Assembly: GCA_027406905.1 (NCBI GenBank)
Contig: DAHZHT010000005.1
Span: 50,080-114,079 of the forward strand
DNA length: 64,000 nt
Direction: 5' to 3'
Source: Elusimicrobiota bacterium
Lineage (GTDB): Bacteria > Elusimicrobiota > Elusimicrobia > UBA1565 > UBA9628
Both the position numbers and the translations under genes were made by a program. Shown in pieces: positions 52,776 through 63,892 of this stretch. The notes under the pieces are model-generated. The model was given only the letters and a program-made list of their open reading frames with translations. It did not search any database and had not been told where the DNA came from. Numbering within the stretch: position 1 is the first letter of the stretch; each line of letters begins with the position of its first letter.

Positions 52776-53357
52776 ATGCCGAAAGCGACCCTGTCTTGCC
52801 CCAATCTAATAGATTGTTCCCCTCAAAGCCCGCGCATTAGCGGACCATGGGCTATTTTTACGACCCCTTATTTCCCGCTGGCGATGACGACTCTTACCGC
52901 CGGAAGCGCGATCTGGGATGGAGCCCAAACGCGCTTTGGAAAAACTCTTTGGCAAAGTCTTGATTCCGCCGTTATCGCCTCTGTTTCCAACACCGGAATG
53001 AAATATGCCTTCCAAAGGGCCCGGCCGACCCAGGACCTCGGAGCCAACGCCTGGTTTTCCGGGCCTCAGAGCCAAAGTTTTCCCTCCAGCGACGTGTCTA
53101 ACACTGCGGCCCTTGTCTCTCCTTTTATTTATGAATACGGATCGGATCATCCGATGGTGTATCTTTTGACTCTTTTGCCCGTGGCGGACGCGGCAGCCCG
53201 AGTAGAAGCGCGCGGGCATTACCCGACAGACACTATTGGCGGCATGGCCTTAGGTTTTGCCAGCGGCTGGGCGGCCAGGCATTTTTTCAAATCGCCGTTT
53301 ACCTTGCAGATTATTCCGGGGAGAGACTGGTCTGTTGGAATATCGCGAAAATTCTAA
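52776..53357 (+). CDS. PAP2-family phosphatase (lipid phosphate phosphatase-like)
   Basis: KYAFQRARP (KX6RP) and ARVEARGHYPTD (SRX5HX3D-like). Start moved from the ORF-track TTG at 52425, which overlaps accC, to the first internal ATG. That coordinate is plus or minus 1 nt. Confidence 0.6.
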   Translation: MPKATLSCPNLIDCSPQSPRISGPWAIFTTPYFPLAMTTLTAGSAIWDGAQTRFGKTLWQSLDSAVIASVSNTGMKYAFQRARPTQDLGANAWFSGPQSQSFPSSDVSNTAALVSPFIYEYGSDHPMVYLLTLLPVADAAARVEARGHYPTDTIGGMALGFASGWAARHFFKSPFTLQIIPGRDWSVGISRKF

Positions 53358-54040
53358 TTAGCGGAATCTTCTAGGACAAATTGAAAAGTCGTCCCGCCGC
53401 AAACGATAATATCTCCGTCCTTTAAGAGGGTAGCGGCGGTGATTTTCTCGCCATTGACAAGGGGATATCCGGAAACGACCGGAATTAAGACATACCCCTC
53501 GGGTTTGCGGTAAATAGAAGCGACCACCTCGGGAGCCGAGCCGAAAAACCCCGTTCCTTTAATGGGGATTTGAACGCGATCGGATTTGCCGATATAGGTT
53601 GAAAGTCCTTTAAGCTCGTAATCAGGCGGGCCCTCCAAGCCCTTTAACACCCGCAAGCGTCCGAGTTTGGACGGAGTTTTGGCCGACTGAGCCAGAATTT
53701 CGGATTGTTTCTCCGGAGTTAGGAAAACAGTTTTATCTCCCGCTGCGGGAGCGGGATCTCGGATAAAGACCAATGAGTGTTTGGCGATTCCAATAACGTC
53801 TTCATGATGAAGCCCGCATTTTTTAATTCGCTTTTCATTGACATAGGTTCCATTGGTCGAATCGAGGTCCTCGACATAATAGGTTTCTCCTTCCAGCGTA
53901 ATTTTACAGTGATTGGAAGAGATGGCGGGATTGTCAATGACAATATCGTTATTCGGGGCTCTCCCAACCAGGAGAGGGCCTTTATTTAAATTGATTTCCT
54001 TAAGCACCGCCACGTTAAACTTAAGAAGAAGCTTTGGCAT
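53354..54040 (-). CDS. tandem FHA-domain protein
   Basis: N-terminal FHA: LLVGRAPNNDIVIDNPAISSNHCKI...YVEDLDSTNGTYVN. A second, degenerate FHA-like domain lies in the C-terminal half. Confidence 0.75.
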   Translation of the reverse strand: MPKLLLKFNVAVLKEINLNKGPLLVGRAPNNDIVIDNPAISSNHCKITLEGETYYVEDLDSTNGTYVNEKRIKKCGLHHEDVIGIAKHSLVFIRDPAPAAGDKTVFLTPEKQSEILAQSAKTPSKLGRLRVLKGLEGPPDYELKGLSTYIGKSDRVQIPIKGTGFFGSAPEVVASIYRKPEGYVLIPVVSGYPLVNGEKITAATLLKDGDIIVCGGTTFQFVLEDSAN

Positions 54041-54839
54041 TCTTTCCTTTAAGGATCGATTTCATTTTAGACCACGAAGCCCCCAAGGCCGATTTTTCTC
54101 CGCCTTGTTCCACTCGGGCGACTACAACCGTGATATTATCAATTCCACCGGCTCCATTCGCTTCCGAAACCAAATTCGCGGCCATATTTTTAACGTCTTC
54201 TTGGCGCGATAAAATTTCTTGGATACGAAAATCCGCGACCATTTTAGTGAGCCCATCAGAAGCCAGTAAAATGATGTCCCTATAAAAGAGAGGGTGCGTG
54301 GAAACATCGACTTCCACATCCGGGTTAGAGCCCACCGCGCGAGTTAAAAGATTTTGAAGTTCTGAAGTTGCGGCTTCTTCTTCACGGAGAAGACCTCTTC
54401 TGATTTGTTCCCGGACGACGGAGTGATCTTCGGTCAGGCAGGATAACACGCCTTGCCTTAAAATATATCCGCGGCTGTCTCCCACATGCGCGATGGTCAA
54501 GGTCTTCCCATCGCCGCAAGCGCACACAAGAGTGGTTCCCATTCCGGCATCCTTGCTCATCAAGCGCCCTTTTTCATAGACAAGTCTGTTGGCCGCTTTA
54601 ACCGCAGCCTCTAAATCGGCGGCGGAAACCCGGTATTCATCATCAGAACATTTCTGTATCAAAAAATCTTTTACTAAAGAAACCGCCAAAGAGCTTGCCA
54701 CCTCTCCGGAATTGTGCCCACCCATCCCGTCGGCGACGATAAAAATACCTTTATTGCCGTCGAAGAAAAATGAGTCCTCGTTATTATTTCTTACCCGTCC
54801 AATATCTGTCAGCCCCGCCGCTTGAAAAAGAGGCTTCAT
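54021..54839 (-). CDS. PP2C-family Ser/Thr phosphatase
   Basis: GLTDIGRVRNNNED, IVADGMGGHNSGEVAS, DGLT. Confidence 0.85.
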   Translation of the reverse strand: MKPLFQAAGLTDIGRVRNNNEDSFFFDGNKGIFIVADGMGGHNSGEVASSLAVSLVKDFLIQKCSDDEYRVSAADLEAAVKAANRLVYEKGRLMSKDAGMGTTLVCACGDGKTLTIAHVGDSRGYILRQGVLSCLTEDHSVVREQIRRGLLREEEAATSELQNLLTRAVGSNPDVEVDVSTHPLFYRDIILLASDGLTKMVADFRIQEILSRQEDVKNMAANLVSEANGAGGIDNITVVVARVEQGGEKSALGASWSKMKSILKGKNAKASS

Positions 54840-57406
54840 GCCTGGACCTTAAGAACTCCGTAGCAAGCGCGGATATCGCGGGCCAACTCCGCCGCGCTTT
54901 GATATCTCGCCTCCGGGTTTTTTGCCAAACCCCGGTTTAAAATCGCCGACACCGATGGCGGAAGAGAAGGCGCGATCGAAAGAGGATCGGGATGGGGATC
55001 GTTGGCGATTTGAAAGAGAAGCGCCCCAATTCCATCTCCTCCTTTAAACGGCTTTTCTCCGGTCAAAAGTTCAAAAAGAACCACGCTGAGGGAAAAAATA
55101 TCCGAGCGCCCATCGACTTTTTTTCCAGCGACCTGCTCAGGACTCATATAAGCGGGCGTTCCCATCACGGTTCCAGTCGCCGTCTTAGAAGAGGTCATGA
55201 CGCGGGCGATTCCAAAATCAGCGACGCGAAGACTTCCGTCTTTGAGAATCATGATATTAGCGGGTTTAATATCTCGATGGACAACTCCCTGCTGATGGGC
55301 ATAGGCCAAAGCGTCCGCCACGGTCGCGACATATTCCATCGCCGATTTCAGTGGAATCAAATGCCCCTTTTCAGTGTAAGCCGCTAAACTTTGCCCTTCC
55401 AAAAACTCCATGGCGATATAGGCCACGTCATCTTCTTCTCCGGCGTCAAAAATGCGGATGATATTGGGATGATTTAATTTCCCCGCCGCCTCCGCTTCCC
55501 GGAAAAATCTCTCTTTAATTTCCTTGACGGATTGAGGATCCGCCTCTTCTCCAAGGCTCATCGTCTTAATCGCGACCCAACGGTTAATTTTAGGGTCCTT
55601 GCCTAAATAGACAATCCCCATCGCGCCGCGGCCCAATTCTTTTTGAATTTCGTATCGGCCCAGGGTTGGCTTGGCCGCTCCCGCGGCGATGACGACGGTT
55701 CCTTCCTTTTTAGAGCCGATAGAGCTCTTTAAAACCGCCCCACTGGCGGCGGATTTAAGAACCGTCATTTTAGATTGAATATCTTTATACTTGGGGTCTT
55801 TCTTAGCGATCAAATCCAAAACCGAAGCGGCCTTGGCGAATTGCCTCTTTCGCTCAAAATCCAAGGCGAGATTGTAAAGGATTTCCTTCATCGCCTCATC
55901 CAGAGGACATAGGCGAAACTTCTCAAAAGCGAGATCGAGCATCCCTTGCCCCTGAAAGGAAAGTCCCAGCATCTTATTGGTCTCAATGGCGGAAGCCTCA
56001 ACCAATTCCTTGCCTTTTTCGGTCACAAAAAATCGCCGGACAACCCCAATCAAATATCCTAAAGCCAGTAAAACGGCCGGATAGCTGGTTTTAACCCATT
56101 CCCCTAGAAGGAAAAAATAACTTCCCGCGCCCAAAATGAACACAAACAATATAAAACTCAGCGCAAAACCCCAGAAAGCGGAAAGAAAAGGCAACGCTAG
56201 GATCACAAAAGCCCCAACCAAGGCAATCAAGCCCCATTCTAATTTGGGCGCCCACGGCGGGCGGGAGATAAAGCGATTTTCCAAAATATTAGAGGTAATA
56301 TTGGCCAGGACCTCGACCGGCGGAATTAAAGGGGCCAAGGGAGTGGCATATGGAGTAGCGATGCCGGTGGCAGTGAGGCCCACCAGGACAATCTTATTTT
56401 TAAACGCCTCCATATCCACGTGTCCATCCATCACGTCGCTAAAAGAATAGTATCTAAAGGTTCGATAAGGCCCATTAAACAAGATCATCATCTGGCTTTT
56501 GGAATTGAGAGGAATATGGGTCTGGGCAAAATCGACGGATTGACCTTGAGAAAAAGTCGCCGAAGAGGGCGATAATTTCTCGAAAGCCAAGGCCAGGGCC
56601 AAGGAATAGGCCGGAATATAGGAATTTTTATAGCGCATGACGGGATAAACCCGCCTTAAAATTCCATCGGAGTCCGGTTTTAGATTGGCGTGTCCAACGC
56701 CAAGGGCGGCTTGAGCGAAAATAGCGATTGGATACGCCGGATCAAAGCCCTTTGGGATGAGCGATTGGTTCATGCCAGGCGTCACCGCCAAACGAACGCT
56801 CGCGCTTGAAAATAGAGGAGGAGTCGCTGCGGCTTGGGAATGTTCATATCCTCTTTCGGTAAAAACAAGCGGCAAAACGACATTCCCGGATTTTTCAATC
56901 GCCGAGGCCAGGCGCGCATCCGCATCTAAGCGAACTTCCTCGGATGAAATCAAGGCCTCAAATAAATGATGCTGATCAAAAATTTTGCGAGATGAGGTCA
57001 AGCGCTGGTAATTCTCGCTAATGGTTTGAAGAGCCTTGATGCCGCGGTCATTTTCCGGTTCGGAATAGATAATATCAAGGCCGATAACTCCCGCCTGCGC
57101 CTCTTTGAGCTTATCCAAGAGTTTCGCAATTCTGGTTCGAGGCCAGGGCCAGCGCCCCAACTGCTCAATTGAATTATTGTCAATCGCGATAATGGCCATT
57201 TCCCGGCCGGAGCTCAAGTCCTGGCGAAGAGTGGACCTCCAGTCATAGAATTTGCGCTCAAAAGACCTAAAAGCGGGAAAGGCCGCAGGAAAGCGATAGC
57301 CCAAAGAAACGCAGGAGGTCAAAAAAACCCCTAATAAAAGATCCCAGACAAGTCCTTTCTTTCTCAACATTATTTTAAGGCCGCTTCCAAAAGTGTAGCG
57401 GAACAA
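54836..57406 (-). CDS. CHASE2-sensor transmembrane Ser/Thr protein kinase
   Basis: C-terminal Hanks kinase with GRGAMGIVYLG, VAIK, HRDIKPANIM and DFGIAR. N-terminal ~400-aa extracytoplasmic CHASE2-like region followed by TM helices. ATGA overlap with the PP2C gene. Confidence 0.85.
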   Translation of the reverse strand: MFRYTFGSGLKIMLRKKGLVWDLLLGVFLTSCVSLGYRFPAAFPAFRSFERKFYDWRSTLRQDLSSGREMAIIAIDNNSIEQLGRWPWPRTRIAKLLDKLKEAQAGVIGLDIIYSEPENDRGIKALQTISENYQRLTSSRKIFDQHHLFEALISSEEVRLDADARLASAIEKSGNVVLPLVFTERGYEHSQAAATPPLFSSASVRLAVTPGMNQSLIPKGFDPAYPIAIFAQAALGVGHANLKPDSDGILRRVYPVMRYKNSYIPAYSLALALAFEKLSPSSATFSQGQSVDFAQTHIPLNSKSQMMILFNGPYRTFRYYSFSDVMDGHVDMEAFKNKIVLVGLTATGIATPYATPLAPLIPPVEVLANITSNILENRFISRPPWAPKLEWGLIALVGAFVILALPFLSAFWGFALSFILFVFILGAGSYFFLLGEWVKTSYPAVLLALGYLIGVVRRFFVTEKGKELVEASAIETNKMLGLSFQGQGMLDLAFEKFRLCPLDEAMKEILYNLALDFERKRQFAKAASVLDLIAKKDPKYKDIQSKMTVLKSAASGAVLKSSIGSKKEGTVVIAAGAAKPTLGRYEIQKELGRGAMGIVYLGKDPKINRWVAIKTMSLGEEADPQSVKEIKERFFREAEAAGKLNHPNIIRIFDAGEEDDVAYIAMEFLEGQSLAAYTEKGHLIPLKSAMEYVATVADALAYAHQQGVVHRDIKPANIMILKDGSLRVADFGIARVMTSSKTATGTVMGTPAYMSPEQVAGKKVDGRSDIFSLSVVLFELLTGEKPFKGGDGIGALLFQIANDPHPDPLSIAPSLPPSVSAILNRGLAKNPEARYQSAAELARDIRACYGVLKVQA

Positions 57407-57519
57407 TCGCTTTCTGTCAACCCGAAATTTTAGGCCGCTTAGGTAAAAATAGCCCAGAATTGAGCGGCAGGAATATCAAAACTATTGACAACATCCGCAG
57501 CTCCTGCAATACTAAATTG

Positions 57520-59499
57520 ATGTTTCCAAAGAGACTCCTTCTGTTTTGGGCGCTGGCGATTTTAATTTTTGGCGGCGTCCCTCATCTTTTCGCGAAAGAT
57601 TCATCACAACCTCTCAATCTCCAGACCCTCGCCATTCCAAAAGCGGAAAAAAATAATTTCCTCTGCCTTGGCTACCGCTTTGAAGCGGAGCATCTCCGCG
57701 CGCCGGATGGGCATCTAGTCACCGAGGAAGAATACGCCCAAGACACAAAACAAGCCTTTAATTACAAGCGTTGGATCAAATCCTTTCTCTCAAAACAGAA
57801 GTCCTCGATATCCCCTGATCAGGAAGAATCAGAAATGGGAGGGAGACTGGTCAATCACAACTACCGTCTCGATCCCGAAACCGCGCATGTCCTTTCGCCG
57901 GAATACCGGGCTCTCGACATTATTGAAGGAAAATGTCTGTTTAGGCGCTTATTCAGCGCGCGGTCAAGCCACCTTTCCCAAACATCCATCGAAAGCGCTG
58001 CGGCGGAAATCGGCTATACCCAAAAGATCTGCGCTCAGTTCCCCGAATCTTGCGCCCAGCAAAAAAAACTTCTCGAGAAAAAACTAAATCTCTTCGCGGC
58101 CCAGGACCCCGCGCTTAAAAGACTCCTCAAATCAGATCCTAATTTCCAAGCGAATCTCATGGGCGCCTACCAAAAACTCCGAGCGCGGTTTGATGGAGAA
58201 CAAAAGCCCTCTTCGCTCATTAATAGGGCTCTCGGAAAATATTCGACCAACCTAGAACCTCTTCCCGCTTACAATGCTCGGGAGAATTTCATCAGCCACT
58301 CTCTCCAAAAACAGGTAATCGCCAAACTTTCGCGCAATCCGGAGGGACACAAGGTTTTAGAACGCCTTAAGGTCAACGGCAAAATCGTCCTTCCTCCTAT
58401 TTTTGTCTTGGAAACCCGCAATTCGGGAGCGTTTTACCAGTGGACTCCGCAAGGAGATCGCGTGGTTTTAAACGCCGACTATGTTTTTGAAGGGCTACCT
58501 AACGAGAAAAAACTGATCTCTGATTTTAGAGCCGGGAATCGCTATCTCGCGAAGCACCCCGAAGCTCTCAAGGGCTATCTCGAGAAATACGACAATGTTT
58601 TAGCTCATGAACTCACCCATACCTGGCAGGAAAGAAAGGATCATTTGAGTTCTCTCGCTTCTGTCAATCTCCTGCCCGGACGCGACTATATTGAAGAGGA
58701 GAAAGAAGCTTTTTTAACCGAAGCGCGCTATCTCTCATATGCCGCGCTTAAAAACCCGAAGAAAGCCATGGAGCGCCCTTATTTCTATGGAAGAGTCCTT
58801 CCCTTCCTTCACAACCCCCGGCAATTTTCGGACAGCGTCCAAGATACCTATATGTTTCTCTATGGTTCAAATGTCGCGACTTTTAAAACCGCCGAAAAAA
58901 TCACGTGGGAACAAAAAGAGATTGATAAAAATCTGGCCGCTCCCCCGCCCGAGGCAAGCGTCTTAACCGCGTCTCTTTCAGCCACAGACGCTCAAAAAAT
59001 AACCCGCTGGCTTAAAGCAAAACTTAGTCTCGCCAGCGACTCTAAGGAGTTTGCCAAAGCAAGCTCCCTCAGCCGCGATTATGACAGGCGAATAGGAAAA
59101 TTAATCGCCGACTCCGGCGGGTTGATACAAAAAACGACAAGAAAACTCGGAGAATGGGATACGGCTCAGGCGTTTAAAGCGCGAAATCCTTATATCAAGA
59201 TTGGCTACTTAACGGACGCAATGCGGTATGGTAAAAACACGGCGCCGGAAATAGATTCTCTTCTTAAAAAGAAAGGCCTCCGCCGCGACCAGGCGGTAAA
59301 GGAGATGATTCATTTGGCAAAAAATATGGCGCTTAAAAGTCATGGGACCGAATCAAGCAGTCAAGCGATTAATTTTCGCGACCTCCTCCAAGGAGTTCAG
59401 TATTTACGCGCCTCATCCGCAGGCGAAATATCTTCTCAAATTAATTGGATATGGTCCTGCGGCGCCTATGGGAAAAATTGCGAGCGCTTGGAAAAATGA
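57520..59499 (+). CDS. secreted hypothetical protein with HExxH(+E) zinc-metallopeptidase-like motif
   Basis: Signal peptide MFPKRLLLFWALAILIFGGVPHLFA. VLAHELTHTWQ with EEEKEAF about 28 aa downstream. No wider family recognised. Confidence 0.45.
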   Translation: MFPKRLLLFWALAILIFGGVPHLFAKDSSQPLNLQTLAIPKAEKNNFLCLGYRFEAEHLRAPDGHLVTEEEYAQDTKQAFNYKRWIKSFLSKQKSSISPDQEESEMGGRLVNHNYRLDPETAHVLSPEYRALDIIEGKCLFRRLFSARSSHLSQTSIESAAAEIGYTQKICAQFPESCAQQKKLLEKKLNLFAAQDPALKRLLKSDPNFQANLMGAYQKLRARFDGEQKPSSLINRALGKYSTNLEPLPAYNARENFISHSLQKQVIAKLSRNPEGHKVLERLKVNGKIVLPPIFVLETRNSGAFYQWTPQGDRVVLNADYVFEGLPNEKKLISDFRAGNRYLAKHPEALKGYLEKYDNVLAHELTHTWQERKDHLSSLASVNLLPGRDYIEEEKEAFLTEARYLSYAALKNPKKAMERPYFYGRVLPFLHNPRQFSDSVQDTYMFLYGSNVATFKTAEKITWEQKEIDKNLAAPPPEASVLTASLSATDAQKITRWLKAKLSLASDSKEFAKASSLSRDYDRRIGKLIADSGGLIQKTTRKLGEWDTAQAFKARNPYIKIGYLTDAMRYGKNTAPEIDSLLKKKGLRRDQAVKEMIHLAKNMALKSHGTESSSQAINFRDLLQGVQYLRASSAGEISSQINWIWSCGAYGKNCERLEK

Positions 59500-60113
59500 T
59501 AAAAAAAACGCTGCCGTTTTTATTACTGATCGCTCTACTCTGGGCGGCATGTTCTAAAGGCTCCGCGGGAACTCCTAAAAAAAATGGAAATCAAGCGGAA
59601 AACGCCGAAGTTATCTACTCGGATCCCCAGCGCTCTTTCTCTTGCTCAATTCCCGGTTCTTGGGGGGTTGACGAAACGGAAGCCGGCGGGATTTACTCAA
59701 CCGTTAATTTTCACAGTCCGGGGCAAACATCCACGATCCGGATCGAGCGCTATATCAAAGGAACGGTTGCCGGGAATGACACGCCCAAGGAGTACATCCG
59801 CAACAGGCGGCTTGACGCGATGGAGCCAGAGACCGGCGGCTATTTTCGCGAAAAACCTTTCCCCCTCCGAAACAAGAAGGGATTTCATTTCGTAACGGTC
59901 GAGGCAGTCCCCCAAATGCCTCAGCCCTGGAACGGAACAAAGGAAGCCTATGGAACCAAGACGACCGCCTTGCGCGATGAAGAAGTCGTCTTGCCGGATA
60001 CGAACGGCTTCTATGTCATCGCCTATATTTGCGATCCTAAAATCAGTTGCAATCAGGAAACTGTCTTTCAAAACGTCGTCAAGACCTTCGCTATCAATGC
60101 GGCTAAAAAGTGA
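59496..60113 (+). CDS. hypothetical lipoprotein
   Basis: Lipobox LLWAAC-S after the signal peptide. ATG overlaps the stop of the upstream HExxH gene (ATGA). Confidence 0.5.
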   Translation: MIKKTLPFLLLIALLWAACSKGSAGTPKKNGNQAENAEVIYSDPQRSFSCSIPGSWGVDETEAGGIYSTVNFHSPGQTSTIRIERYIKGTVAGNDTPKEYIRNRRLDAMEPETGGYFREKPFPLRNKKGFHFVTVEAVPQMPQPWNGTKEAYGTKTTALRDEEVVLPDTNGFYVIAYICDPKISCNQETVFQNVVKTFAINAAKK

Positions 60114-60181: not shown

Positions 60182-60652
60182 CTAGCGGCGAACCAGGAAG
60201 GTGACCCAAGAACTCTCTTCCCCAAGGTATTTTTCGTACACCAATCCCTCATTGGGAGCGTAGAATCTTTCAATGGAACCGGTGTTTTTATCGGTCGCTA
60301 CAACCTTGAGACAATGATCAACGAGTCCGCTCGGGGTTTGGATTGAGGCGTTTAAAGATTCGACGCTGCAATATGGATAGCGGCTTGAGTCGTCCCATTC
60401 GTCATGGATATTGGGAGAAGCGGGAAGAAGCAGATGCCCTCGAGAATGAACGCCCGCCCGATCTTTGATGATTTCGTAGGTGAACGGCGGGTTTCCCATC
60501 CATCTTTCCTTTATCGTGGCCACGAACTCTCCGCCATTCTGTTTGAGAGAACTCAGCTCGCGCACGGTTTGACCGATGGCGGGAGGCTCGCTGAAGGTGA
60601 TGCTGACATAAATCCAGAGTTTTCCCGAAGATAAAGGATAGTAATCAGGCAT
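60182..60652 (-). CDS. hypothetical cytoplasmic protein
   Basis: 156-aa ORF 18 nt downstream of the PLD-like gene on the same strand. No recognisable motif. Confidence 0.35.
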   Translation of the reverse strand: MPDYYPLSSGKLWIYVSITFSEPPAIGQTVRELSSLKQNGGEFVATIKERWMGNPPFTYEIIKDRAGVHSRGHLLLPASPNIHDEWDDSSRYPYCSVESLNASIQTPSGLVDHCLKVVATDKNTGSIERFYAPNEGLVYEKYLGEESSWVTFLVRR

Positions 60653-60669
60653 GAATTTCTCCCAGAAAC

Positions 60670-62643
60670 TTAACTATTTTTTGGATTTTCCGACTCCGGG
60701 TTGGGGCGAGTCGGGGTTTGCAACAAATCGGGCTCTGTTGCCATACTCCAAAGGGCCTCAAGATAATTTGTGATGGAAGCAAGGTAGCCGCCTTTAAGGT
60801 AGAGGGTATTTTCGAAATTATTGCGAGTCCCGTTGACACTCATATTGGTTGACCCTGTCGCCACGATCCCATCGCCTTTGGGATCGCCTATAACCAGCTT
60901 ATTGTGGAATAAACCATCATTGTTGAGACCCGAAATAACGCGCACCTGCGCGCCCGCTTCCTTGAGATGCCGCATGGCGGCAATCGAAGCCGCATTATGG
61001 GATTGCCGTTGATCGGCCAGAATCCGAACCGGCAGGCCGGAACCCAAACGATCCAAAAGCTCTGACATCATGGAAGGCCAAGGATAAAAAGCGAACATTC
61101 CAATGAATATTTCTTGTTTCGCGGCCTTGACAATTTGAATCCAGGCGTCATCGGTTCCTCCCTCAGGAGAAAAAGAGGCGACGGGAAGAGAAACGCCATT
61201 GAAACTTTGACCCAGCGAATCATCCGCGGGAATGGGGGATTGAATACTAGGCTCTTCGGGATCAAGATCCTCTGAAAAAGTGCGCGCGATGCTTTTCATC
61301 CAGGTAAAATTCTTTTGGTAGAGATCAATGAGTTTCTGGTCGTCAATTAAAACGACATTTTCCCAATTGCTGGCCTGGGTGTGAGCGGAATAATTGTAGG
61401 ATCCTGTCTGTAATATTCTCGAGGTTTGGCCATTGGGAAGAGGGATATTCCAAAGGCGATATTTTGAGTGTTGGATCCCGATTCTCCCCAAACCTTTTAG
61501 GATAGAAATCTGCAAGTTTTTATTTCCCGCGAGATAGGCGTCAACCAACTTTTGGAGTTGGGGACTACGAGTCTGATGGAACTCTTGATTTTCCCGTCCC
61601 ATTTTCTCAGGAAACATATTTGAATAATCCACGATAATGTCATAGGATTTCCCTTGCTTAATTCCCTCGAGTATGGAATCAACGTCTTGGTCCAAGGTCT
61701 CTTCATACATCGCGATTTGGGTTTGTTGGCTGGCAAGATTGGCGCGAGCTAAAATTGAGGGAATGTCATCTCCGACTTCTCCTCCCGGACGATTAGGGAA
61801 GAGCGTTCTCGCTACGGATTGGCCAGCAATGTTGATGGTGTCTTTTCCATCCAGAGCGGGGAAATTCAACATTCTGGAAGCCAAAGAAGAAGCTGGAATT
61901 TGTTTTTCAGCGGGCCGGTCAAGTTCCTGCGCTGCGGAAAGGTCATAGAAAGAAAAATTTCTCATGAGCTGCCAAGCATAAGACCCCTCTTTTGGATTTT
62001 GACCACTTTTCCAAAACGGTTTGAGAGTTTCAGTAATATGGCGCACTTGCGCCGAAGTCAGGTCACGACTGATGCTTTTGACCAACTCCTTCTGGCTCTT
62101 GCTGATGGCATAAATTTTGGCCAAAGGAAGGAGAGCGGCATCTAAGTCTTTTGAGGCGTTGAAGGCGCCCGGGGAAACCGAAGAATTGGTTTGTTTTTGA
62201 AATTCCTTATAATAGGCTTTTAAAGCGGAGAAAACTTTGGGGGCGGACGCTTTTTGAGCTTCTTTAAGGCGAGAAGATATTTTCGCGACTAACGCCTGGC
62301 GCGTATTTTCATCAGTTGAAGCGGCGGCCGCCGCAATGTCTTCTTTTAATTGAGAAACAGATTCCGGAGAAAGCTCATTGAGAATGGGCGAGAGTAAAAC
62401 AGGGGCTAAATAAGAATTCCGAGAGAAAATACCGAGGTCCATTCCGCCAGAATTTCCAGAAAATTCTTTCCAAGTTCCAAGGGTTTCAAAAGTAGGTAGC
62501 GCAGCGGACAGGGAACCAGAATTGAAGAGGGGCTGTGAAAACAGCGGCGACATACCAACTGGTTCCTCGCTGACCTCAGCGCTCCAGGCCACAGAAGAGA
62601 GGCAGAAAAGCAAAACAAAAATCTTAACAACAGAACGATGCAT
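60670..62643 (-). CDS. secreted phospholipase D-superfamily protein (two HKD motifs) with ~350-aa N-terminal extension
   Basis: Signal peptide MHRSVVKIFVLLFCLSSVAWSA. HKD-like motifs IQHSKYRLWN...GSYNYS and LFHNKLVIGD...GSTNMS. Confidence 0.65.
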   Translation of the reverse strand: MHRSVVKIFVLLFCLSSVAWSAEVSEEPVGMSPLFSQPLFNSGSLSAALPTFETLGTWKEFSGNSGGMDLGIFSRNSYLAPVLLSPILNELSPESVSQLKEDIAAAAASTDENTRQALVAKISSRLKEAQKASAPKVFSALKAYYKEFQKQTNSSVSPGAFNASKDLDAALLPLAKIYAISKSQKELVKSISRDLTSAQVRHITETLKPFWKSGQNPKEGSYAWQLMRNFSFYDLSAAQELDRPAEKQIPASSLASRMLNFPALDGKDTINIAGQSVARTLFPNRPGGEVGDDIPSILARANLASQQTQIAMYEETLDQDVDSILEGIKQGKSYDIIVDYSNMFPEKMGRENQEFHQTRSPQLQKLVDAYLAGNKNLQISILKGLGRIGIQHSKYRLWNIPLPNGQTSRILQTGSYNYSAHTQASNWENVVLIDDQKLIDLYQKNFTWMKSIARTFSEDLDPEEPSIQSPIPADDSLGQSFNGVSLPVASFSPEGGTDDAWIQIVKAAKQEIFIGMFAFYPWPSMMSELLDRLGSGLPVRILADQRQSHNAASIAAMRHLKEAGAQVRVISGLNNDGLFHNKLVIGDPKGDGIVATGSTNMSVNGTRNNFENTLYLKGGYLASITNYLEALWSMATEPDLLQTPTRPNPESENPKNS

Positions 62644-62831
62644 GGAAGGCTCCTTTGAGGCTCTTCGAAAAATCCACTCCATCCATAGATTTATTTTAAG
62701 CGATTTTGCTCAAGTTCAATAGGGCCAAAGGGCCTAGACAGGTTTCAGCAAAAGGCCTAGATGAAAAGAAGTTTGAGATGATTTGATGCGAACTCTTGAG
62801 ACTCCTTCGGTAAAAATATAGAATAGGAGTC

Positions 62832-63017
62832 ATGAAGAGACGAGATTTGGTTAAATATCTCACCGACAACGGATGCGTGCTGATACGAGAAGGCGGGAAA
62901 TACTCCATTTATCAAAATCCCGTCAATCAAAAAGAAGTCCCCATCACCCGGCACCCCGAAATGGAAGATTTCGCGGCCCGGAAAGTCTGTAAGCAGCTCG
63001 GCCTTCCCCCGATTTAA
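62832..63017 (+). CDS. hicA: HicA-family mRNA-interferase toxin (YcfA-like)
   Basis: 61 aa. KRRDLVKYLTDNGCVLIREGGKYSIYQNP...VPITRHP fits HicA. Confidence 0.65.
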   Translation: MKRRDLVKYLTDNGCVLIREGGKYSIYQNPVNQKEVPITRHPEMEDFAARKVCKQLGLPPI

Positions 63018-63029
63018 AGGCTTTCCAGC

Positions 63030-63188
63030 CTAACGACGGATTAAAACAACCATCGAGTAGCCAAGAAAAATTCCGACAATGCCGGCAATTCCGGCCAATG
63101 TCGGCGGAGCCGGAACCGGCAAGCGCAAAAACCCAAAAAGAAAACCGCACCCGGCGCCGCTGATTAGACTCAGAATAATCGTTTTCAT
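63030..63188 (-). CDS. 52-aa two-TM small membrane protein translationally coupled to the upstream GT2
   Basis: Not in the ORF track because it is under 60 aa. MKTIILSLISGAGCGFLFGFLRLPVPAPPTLAGIAGIVGIFLGYSMVVLIRR. Its ATG overlaps the GT2 stop (ATGA). Confidence 0.4.
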   Translation of the reverse strand: MKTIILSLISGAGCGFLFGFLRLPVPAPPTLAGIAGIVGIFLGYSMVVLIRR

Positions 63189-63892
63189 GGATTCATTCTA
63201 ACAAGTTTCATCAATCTAAAAATCAGGAGAAGATGAGCGCGCAATTCTCTATATAAATTTAATTTCGATTTTCCGTATTGGCGGTTTTCCAACGCCGCCG
63301 GAATTTCCGAAACTTTGAACCCGCAAATCCAAAAAAGGGCCGCAATCTCGGCGTTAATTTCAAAGCCCTCGCTTTGAACAGCGAGGCTTTTTAGACAAGA
63401 ACTCCGGTATAAGCGGAAAATGGAGGTAAAAGAAGAGAAGGGAATTCCACAAGCCCAGCGGTAGGAAAAATTAGCCAGACGGCTTAAAGCGCGTCTCCAG
63501 AACAACACCTGGGAAGCGAATTCATCTCCTATCCACGGAGAACCCGAAACCATATCGGATAAATTGCGCCTTTGATTTTCTATTAGCCGAGGAATCTGCC
63601 GCGGAGAAAAGGTTAAATCCGCGTCCAAAGCCAAAATCCATTCCCCCGCGGATGCGGCAAAACCGCTTTTAAGCGCTTTTCCCAAGCCCCGGTTTTCCCG
63701 ATGAATGATTAGTTTGATTTCTTGAGATTTTTCAAACCGCCTTAATATCTCTTGACTTCCATCGTTAGAGCCGTCGTCAACGACAATAAGCTCAAACTCT
63801 TCGCCAAGCGACTTTAAAATTGGAAAAAGAGATTCTGGAAAGCGGGCGATATTTTCTCGTTCATTGAAGCATGGAATGACAATTGAAATCAC
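63185..63892 (-). CDS. GT2 polyprenyl-phosphate glycosyltransferase (GtrB/ArnC/DPM1-like), second copy
   Basis: ISIVIPCFNEREN...IVVDDGSNDGS...DAD. Confidence 0.75.
   Translation of the reverse strand: MISIVIPCFNERENIARFPESLFPILKSLGEEFELIVVDDGSNDGSQEILRRFEKSQEIKLIIHRENRGLGKALKSGFAASAGEWILALDADLTFSPRQIPRLIENQRRNLSDMVSGSPWIGDEFASQVLFWRRALSRLANFSYRWACGIPFSSFTSIFRLYRSSCLKSLAVQSEGFEINAEIAALFWICGFKVSEIPAALENRQYGKSKLNLYRELRAHLLLIFRLMKLVRMNP

Follow-up and report, generated by a model that had tools for sequence, protein, structure and literature searches.

Secreted nucleases encoded together with a cytoplasmic inhibitor are exemplified by barnase-barstar and by Anabaena NucA-NuiA, and we know of no protein that inhibits an HKD nuclease. 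Among HKD proteins of the phospholipase D (PLD) superfamily, those that best bear comparison with the locus described here are the pKM101 periplasmic endonuclease Nuc (PDB 1BYR) and Helicobacter NucT, which are single-HKD proteins of about 155 residues that form homodimers, the Serratia plymuthica protein SpPLD (PDB 7E0M), a secreted protein of compact PLDc_2 type that has two HKD motifs and whose natural substrate is not established, and the mammalian 5'-3' exonucleases PLD3 and PLD4 (PDB 8V08) and poxvirus F13/K4-type proteins, of eukaryotic or viral origin and either palmitoylated or of type II membrane topology. Here we analyse a 64,000-nucleotide stretch of DNA from an Elusimicrobiota bacterium (contig DAHZHT010000005.1, positions 50,080 to 114,079; hereafter the window), in which a gene for a two-lobed HKD protein, the PLD-like protein, is followed by a small gene, orf156. 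Our preferred reading, held tentatively and at a little under an even chance, is that the pair encodes an exported HKD phosphodiesterase, likely a nuclease, together with a dedicated cytoplasmic partner, perhaps an inhibitor or holder. The pair resembles barnase-barstar and NucA-NuiA in that an exported hydrolase gene is followed in one operon by a small, signal-less partner gene, but the proteins are related neither in sequence nor in fold. The catalytic module is ordinary for its superfamily; what is unusual is a lineage-specific helical N-terminal domain and the strictly linked small cytoplasmic partner. The pair is laid out as follows.

60670..62643, minus strand: gene of the PLD-like protein, an exported PLD-superfamily member with two HKD lobes, 657 residues from Met14 (open reading frame, PLDc_2 matches, database protein, family alignment)
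60653..60669, minus strand: intergenic spacer of 17 nt, with the orf156 ATG 5 nt after its GGGAGA ribosome-binding site (60658..60663)
60182..60652, minus strand: orf156, signal-less partner of 156 residues (open reading frame, homologues, AlphaFold2 model)

The PLD-like protein and its relatives

The large open reading frame occupies 60670..62682 on the minus strand and encodes 670 residues counted from its first ATG (62682). The true start is most likely Met14, with its ATG at 62643 and a product of 657 residues, because an AAGGAG ribosome-binding site at 6 nt, a 657-residue database protein that is 99% identical to the product and matches this start, and the family alignment, which begins at Met14, all agree. 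The features of the gene that are used below are these.

62650..62655, minus strand: AAGGAG ribosome-binding site, read from the sequence, 6 nt 5' of the Met14 ATG (62643..62641)
62581..62643, minus strand: Sec-type signal peptide, residues 14-34 (MHRSVVKIFVLLFCLSSVAWS, with AE after the cleavage site), read from the sequence, the site placed by the -3/-1 rule
61921..62406, minus strand: family-specific N-terminal helical domain, residues 93-254 (AlphaFold2 helical bundle; predicted local distance difference test score, pLDDT, 80-90)
61273..61839, minus strand: HKD lobe 1, residues 282-470 (PLDc_2, alignments, AlphaFold2 model)
61393..61470, minus strand: lobe 1 motif H405-S-K407-YRLWN412, then G427-S428-Y-N430 (N439-W-E441-N follows beyond this interval)
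60742..61185, minus strand: HKD lobe 2, residues 500-647 (PLDc_2, alignments including Nuc 1byr)
60844..60906, minus strand: lobe 2 motif H593-N-K595-LVIGD600, then G610-S611-T-N613 (N622-F-E624-N follows beyond this interval)

A signal peptide stands at the N-terminus of nearly all relatives of the PLD-like protein, distant ones included. Its Cys is not conserved and lies outside any lipobox, and the twin-arginine motif is absent from it, so we set aside export as a lipoprotein or via Tat. The protein is predicted to be exported via Sec and to be periplasmic or extracellular, two locations that the data do not separate.

Pfam PLDc_2 matches the protein in two stretches (expectation value, E, 1.2e-28; 100 bits against a gathering cut-off of 27), an assignment that, as judged from the sequence, is far beyond chance. 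The superfamily motif HxK(x)4D(x)6G[SG]xN occurs once in each lobe, with Asn (N412) instead of Asp in the lobe 1 motif of all family members. Residues H405, K407, S428, N430, E441, H593, K595, D600, S611, N613 and E624 are invariant or nearly so among 30 diverse relatives, whose accessory domains comprise PLD-clan families only, with no informative fusions. As the catalytic H, K, S, N and E of both lobes are kept across these 30 distant relatives, and also in 11 close ones, the enzyme is expected to be catalytically competent. An AlphaFold2 model built from an 11-sequence family alignment (pLDDT 70; predicted template modelling score, pTM, 0.69) has the bilobal PLD fold, in which two alpha/beta lobes (residues 282-470 and 500-647) are preceded by a disordered linker. 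Residues 35-92, which hold an invariant QP.F element, are poorly ordered, and are followed by the helical bundle with its long helices at residues 125-165, 171-191 and 195-226. Residues 45-280 of the N-terminal region are basic, with an isoelectric point (pI) of about 9.3.

The earlier account of this locus, a reading made from sequence only, had described a secreted protein with two HKD motifs, and the Sec-type signal peptide, the two PLDc_2 stretches and the presence of both motifs that it quoted bear it out. It had also placed about 350 residues of unassigned sequence ahead of the motifs; a lineage-specific region does exist there but is shorter, as lobe 1 begins near residue 282 and the part with no family assignment runs from about residue 35 to 280, about 245 residues. 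In this region, for which it had proposed a homology and structure search, the AlphaFold2 model has the helical bundle at residues 93-254, and comparison of that bundle with the folds in the PDB gave no specific match.

Nuc is the PDB entry that the PLD-like protein matches best in sequence (E 2e-7 by itself and 4e-8 with the family profile), and Zucchini comes next; the best curated models are those of DrmC (48.3 bits) and NucT (37.8 bits), ahead of cardiolipin synthase (about 24 bits), all scoring far under their cut-offs (297 for the NucT equivalog NF010492). The protein shares an export signal with the Nuc/NucT-type nucleases but not their architecture, since two diverged lobes are fused in one chain behind the N-terminal region of about 245 residues where Nuc and NucT are homodimers of a single HKD unit. 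In each lobe the motif is of the GS form and is accompanied by an N-x-E-N element that aligns with that of Nuc. Nuclease members have been noted to carry GS, and the lipid PLDs of Streptomyces and human GG (PMC8004604), a distinction that we treat as a weak sequence indicator of nuclease identity, and the same paper describes the pocket loops of SpPLD as nuclease-like (PMC8004604).

The nearest folds are those of Serratia SpPLD and the human exonuclease PLD4. The fold-comparison list gives Serratia SpPLD (7e0m) 27.2, human PLD4 exonuclease 24.5, vaccinia F13 23.4, PssA 21.8, Streptomyces PLD 18 and Nuc, compared per lobe, 16.3. SpPLD is only 15% identical, lacks an N-terminal helical domain and has not been described with a partner gene; identity to PLD3/PLD4 and to the F13/K4-type proteins is likewise about 15%, a likeness that implies no orthology. 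The PLD-like protein falls in the compact Nuc/SpPLD/PLD3-4-like branch of the PLD superfamily.

We found no orthology to cardiolipin or phosphatidylserine synthase in a conserved housekeeping context, the outcome that the sequence-only reading had named as decisive against itself. With cardiolipin synthase models the protein gains 16-24 bits where 290-787 are required (TIGR04265, 23.6 against 290; PRK12452, 16.2 against 787), the synthase scores being 10-50x under their cut-offs, the protein has a cleavable signal peptide and not N-terminal transmembrane anchors, and there are no lipid-synthesis neighbours in any locus. DrmC of the DISARM system was also rejected, given 48.3 bits against a cut-off of 133 and the lack of DrmA/B, methylase or Dpd genes nearby. 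More generally, PADLOC matches to the defence PLDs (DrmC, PbeA, DpdK) are weak and partial, and an exported protein is incompatible with intracellular defence. A Tle5/PldA-type effector of a type VI secretion system (T6SS) with Tli5 immunity was set aside as well, as there is no vgrG, hcp or PAAR linkage, orf156 is not periplasmic and there is no hypervariability.

The downstream gene orf156

By comparison of its sequence with homologues, orf156 is to be regarded as a real conserved gene. The homologues are 57-80% identical, occupy the same position beside the PLD-like genes of clade A (the branch of the family that includes the window gene, see below), share the start Met and lack a signal peptide. 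The sequence-only reading had correctly noted an open reading frame of 156 codons at 60182..60652 without a signal peptide, placing it 18 nt downstream; the gap is 17 nt. This spacer contains no terminator, and in homologous loci the spacing is 9 nt (L018) or the frames overlap by 4 nt (L001), an arrangement from which we read the PLD-like gene and orf156 as a bicistronic operon.

A homologue of orf156 follows every clade A gene found, in four lineages (the window, L014, L001/L008 and L007/L018). An orf156-family profile recovered no members other than these clade A neighbours in the window and 28 loci, clade B genes and distant relatives included, and the whole family amounts to four clusters in 5.8e9 proteins. 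The conserved linkage strongly supports orf156 as a dedicated partner of the clade A enzyme, one of the roles proposed for it from the sequence. As the homologues have no signal peptide, orf156 should stay cytoplasmic while the product of its operon partner is exported.

Searches of Pfam, NCBIfam, PADLOC and PDB, by sequence and by profile, gave no meaningful match to orf156, even when E values as high as 10 were admitted. From its model and the comparison of this with folds in the PDB, an all-beta half-barrel of the YmcC/LolA-like type is predicted with moderate confidence (AlphaFold2 pLDDT 67, other four models about 50). This fold class (LolA/LolB/LprG) includes BF2203 (PDB 3FZX, 'YmcC-like fold') and BDI_3050 (PDB 4FVS) of Bacteroidales, for the latter of which we found no paper giving a function in the literature. 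These are exported proteins or lipoproteins, whereas orf156 has no signal peptide and no detectable sequence similarity to them, and its model is of moderate confidence; neither sequence-level membership of LolA, LolB or YmcC nor, in any of the homologues, an export signal or lipobox was found. The family has a conserved acidic loop, [DE]xW[DE]D.SRYP, at residues 83-93.

Two clades in Elusimicrobia

A word-indexed search of 5.8 billion proteins returned 13 full-length relatives of the PLD-like protein, and an exhaustive HMMER search of 1.84 billion representatives returned 1037 at E<1e-3, 30 of them at E<1e-30, with the helical region partly aligned in only four (P0018, P0030, P0034 and P0053). 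The named sources of the family are all metagenome-assembled genomes (MAGs) of Elusimicrobia, in which the proteins are annotated as hypothetical, and on these sources the family is confined to Elusimicrobia. A search of the literature found no papers on PLD-like proteins of Elusimicrobia. Scanning metagenomes for distant relatives gave nine high-GC loci at 32-35% identity; no context is conserved at these nine, which are flanked by unrelated housekeeping genes (2OG dioxygenase, QRPTase, PBP, U32 peptidase, OYE).

Several MAGs carry two PLD-like copies, and both are seen in GCA_027401815.1. A neighbour-joining tree separates clade A (the window protein, P0002 and P0003) from clade B (P0004-P0013). 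The clade B genes sit near tgt-queA and lack the 156-codon gene. In five clade B loci (L009, L010, L011, L012 and L016) a gene for an exported S1/P1 nuclease lies immediately upstream on the same strand; these genes match PF02265 over the full model length (E 1e-46 to 1e-48), their signal peptide ends just before WGPEGH, with which the mature protein would begin, and four of the five stand 10-24 nt from the PLD-like gene, the start being unclear in L012. This tight linkage in five loci is the strongest contextual argument for a nuclease role. A gene for an FtsH-like AAA/M41 protease precedes the block of S1/P1 and PLD-like genes, in L004 directly preceding the PLD-like gene, and in L017 a gene for an NPP-type phosphodiesterase adjoins the PLD-like gene.

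The FtsH-like proteins, with which the clade B loci open, are unusually long, about 920-940 residues (L004 5237..8008; L011 865..3675; L010 108..2366), with the AAA domain from about residue 515, the M41 peptidase from about 730 and an unassigned N-terminus of about 490 residues that opens with a signal-like segment; in L004 there is an 8-nt overlap between this reading frame and the PLD-like gene. Also conserved, by queA-tgt near clade B genes, is an ankyrin-repeat/caspase-like (Peptidase_C14) protein of about 687 residues (L004 13833..15896; L016 9823..9853). The clades also differ in charge, clade A having a pI of 5.5-6.0 (window, P0002, P0003) and most of clade B 8.2-9.5 (P0008-P0012), with identical catalytic residues, a difference that may reflect different substrates or compartments.

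The pair alone is shared between the window and other clade A loci. In L001, L007 and L018 it lies between a TRAP-transporter/LOG/TPR block and a Usp gene, whereas in the window an orphan HicA gene and a GT2 glycosyltransferase gene lie upstream, and convergent genes for a lipoprotein and a secreted HExxH protein downstream. Of the clade A relatives, the closest is on a MAG contig (L014, 1..4067), with 89% identity over the C-terminal part and 79% over residues 134-395. Its PLD-like gene is cut near residue 134 by an open reading frame for a DDE transposase of 598 residues (PF01609) and is frameshifted near residue 395, with the 156-codon gene intact, and a second, more diverged fragment at 3..155 matches residues 145-195; this PLD-like gene could be a pseudogene or an assembly artefact.

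Function of the pair and its setting

A nuclease role for the PLD-like enzyme, with a nucleic-acid substrate that we infer, is favoured at roughly even odds, because Nuc, NucT, DrmC and Zucchini are its nearest relatives in sequence and the clade B gene shares an operon with an S1/P1 nuclease. On our preferred reading the histidine of one lobe would attack the phosphodiester to give a phospho-histidine intermediate and that of the other lobe would protonate the leaving group. Nucleic acid would be the most likely substrate, and the exported enzyme, whose catalytic lobes follow a basic helical domain peculiar to the lineage, would serve as a periplasmic or extracellular nuclease for scavenging of DNA or RNA. 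The cytoplasmic half-barrel orf156, presumably co-transcribed, would most likely serve as a stoichiometric inhibitor or holder, so that the enzyme stays harmless or fit for export until Sec translocation; by analogy we prefer the inhibitor role. A bolder form of the proposal, which we think unlikely, would make orf156 the first proteinaceous inhibitor of an HKD nuclease, its acidic loop (residues 83-93) plugging the active-site cleft before translocation, in a barstar-like pair confined to Elusimicrobia.

Several observations weigh against the exported nuclease with a cytoplasmic inhibitor. It is the clade B paralogue, and not the window gene, that has the S1/P1 linkage, and clade B lacks the partner, although a self-protection inhibitor, if that is what orf156 is, might be expected to be needed there too. 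The catalytic lobes are acidic (pI about 5.1-5.3) and the whole mature protein has a pI of 5.6, which is unusual for a nucleic-acid enzyme. Confidence in the orf156 model is only moderate, and its fold matches, YmcC/LolA/LprG-like, are of a class typical of lipid or lipoprotein binders, so that a lipid-binding or chaperone role would suit the predicted fold equally well.

A lipid substrate is the main alternative to the nuclease role. The PLD-like protein would then be an envelope enzyme that hydrolyses or transphosphatidylates a phospholipid or a lipid-linked phosphodiester, with orf156 binding the lipid substrate or product on the cytoplasmic side, a proposal that we consider doubtful though worth serious attention. 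It gains from the predicted orf156 fold, which resembles lipid-binding modules (LolA, LolB, LprG, lipovitellin and ApoB), from the position of the clade B gene downstream of a membrane FtsH-like protease gene in several loci, and from the basic, amphipathic-looking helical domain, which could bind anionic membranes. However, the sequence is consistently closer to nuclease-type HKD proteins than to cardiolipin synthases, PF00614 has no match in the PLD-like protein, no lipid-metabolism gene is linked in any examined locus, and the gene tightly linked to the paralogue is one for an S1/P1 nuclease; moreover, a lipid binder in the cytoplasm would be in another compartment than an enzyme in the periplasm. 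It seems improbable that the enzyme acts on another phosphodiester polymer (polyphosphate- or teichoic-acid-like, or capsule), with orf156 unrelated in function or a generic export chaperone. The GT2 glycosyltransferase gene upstream in the window would fit such a substrate, but it is not conserved beside the pair in other genomes and no polysaccharide genes are linked elsewhere, while linkage of enzyme and orf156 in four lineages, with overlapping or nearly abutting frames, argues against coincidence.

That the pair is instead an antibacterial weapon, an exported HKD lipase or nuclease with orf156 as its cognate immunity protein, we regard as very unlikely. Such a pair might be expected from a self-contained two-gene cassette whose flanks differ between the window and L001, L007 and L018, from the extremely narrow distribution of orf156, from the orphan HicA toxin gene that adjoins the pair in the window, and from the disrupted enzyme gene and intact small gene of L014, which recall orphan immunity genes; L014 is, however, a low-coverage MAG contig, maybe mis-assembled, and we give it little weight. 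Neither the window nor any other locus has T6SS, type VII secretion system, contact-dependent inhibition, Rhs or PAAR genes or polymorphic-toxin features, and the window neighbourhood is one of housekeeping genes (SHMT, biotin carboxylase, Ser/Thr kinase, PP2C, FHA). Enzyme and partner diverge at an equal, moderate rate (64% and 62% identity) and show no hypervariability, each genome has one copy only and no arrays of immunity genes, and immunity to an envelope-acting toxin would be expected in the periplasm, whereas orf156 has no signal peptide. The immunity role suggested for orf156 by the sequence-only reading is therefore disfavoured, as orf156 is not periplasmic. Of the functions which that reading offered for the enzyme, a lipid-remodelling enzyme, a nuclease or an antibacterial phospholipase effector, its nearest relatives and the clade B operon favour the nuclease, and the lack of a secretion-system or polymorphic-toxin context speaks against the effector.

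If the proposed exported nuclease with its cytoplasmic partner is right, Elusimicrobia, a phylum that is little studied and for the most part uncultured, would own a lineage-specific set of exported nucleic-acid-degrading enzymes. The HKD enzyme would be present in it as two paralogues, of which one works alongside an S1/P1 nuclease, and the set would bear on nucleotide and phosphate scavenging. orf156 would then be a new protein family tied to an HKD enzyme, and an inhibitor or chaperone of this kind, none having been described for the superfamily, could serve as a reagent. As the catalytic domain belongs to a very large known superfamily, the interest is a specialist one.

The genes that surround the pair in the window are the following.

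63185..63892: GT2 glycosyltransferase gene
63030..63188, minus strand: hydrophobic open reading frame of 52 residues directly downstream of the GT2 gene, weak DUF1427 match (E 2e-4)
62832..63017, plus strand: HicA-type toxin gene, 61 residues (PF07927, E 6e-9), divergent from the PLD-like gene
59445..60113, plus strand: probable lipoprotein of 222 residues, convergent to the operon, weak PsbP-like match (E 1e-4)
57460..59499, plus strand: protein of 679 residues, convergent to the operon, with a signal peptide and a HELTH (HExxH) zinc-protease-like motif
53354..57406, minus strand: signalling cluster of CHASE2-Ser/Thr kinase (856 residues), PP2C phosphatase and FHA-domain genes

No HicB antitoxin reading frame is recognisable next to the HicA gene, which makes it an apparent orphan. 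The 679-residue HELTH protein has no Pfam or NCBIfam match, and neither its gene nor that of the 222-residue protein is conserved beside the pair in other genomes. The signalling cluster forms one directional block, and genes for a PAP2 phosphatase and a biotin carboxylase lie just upstream of it on the other strand.

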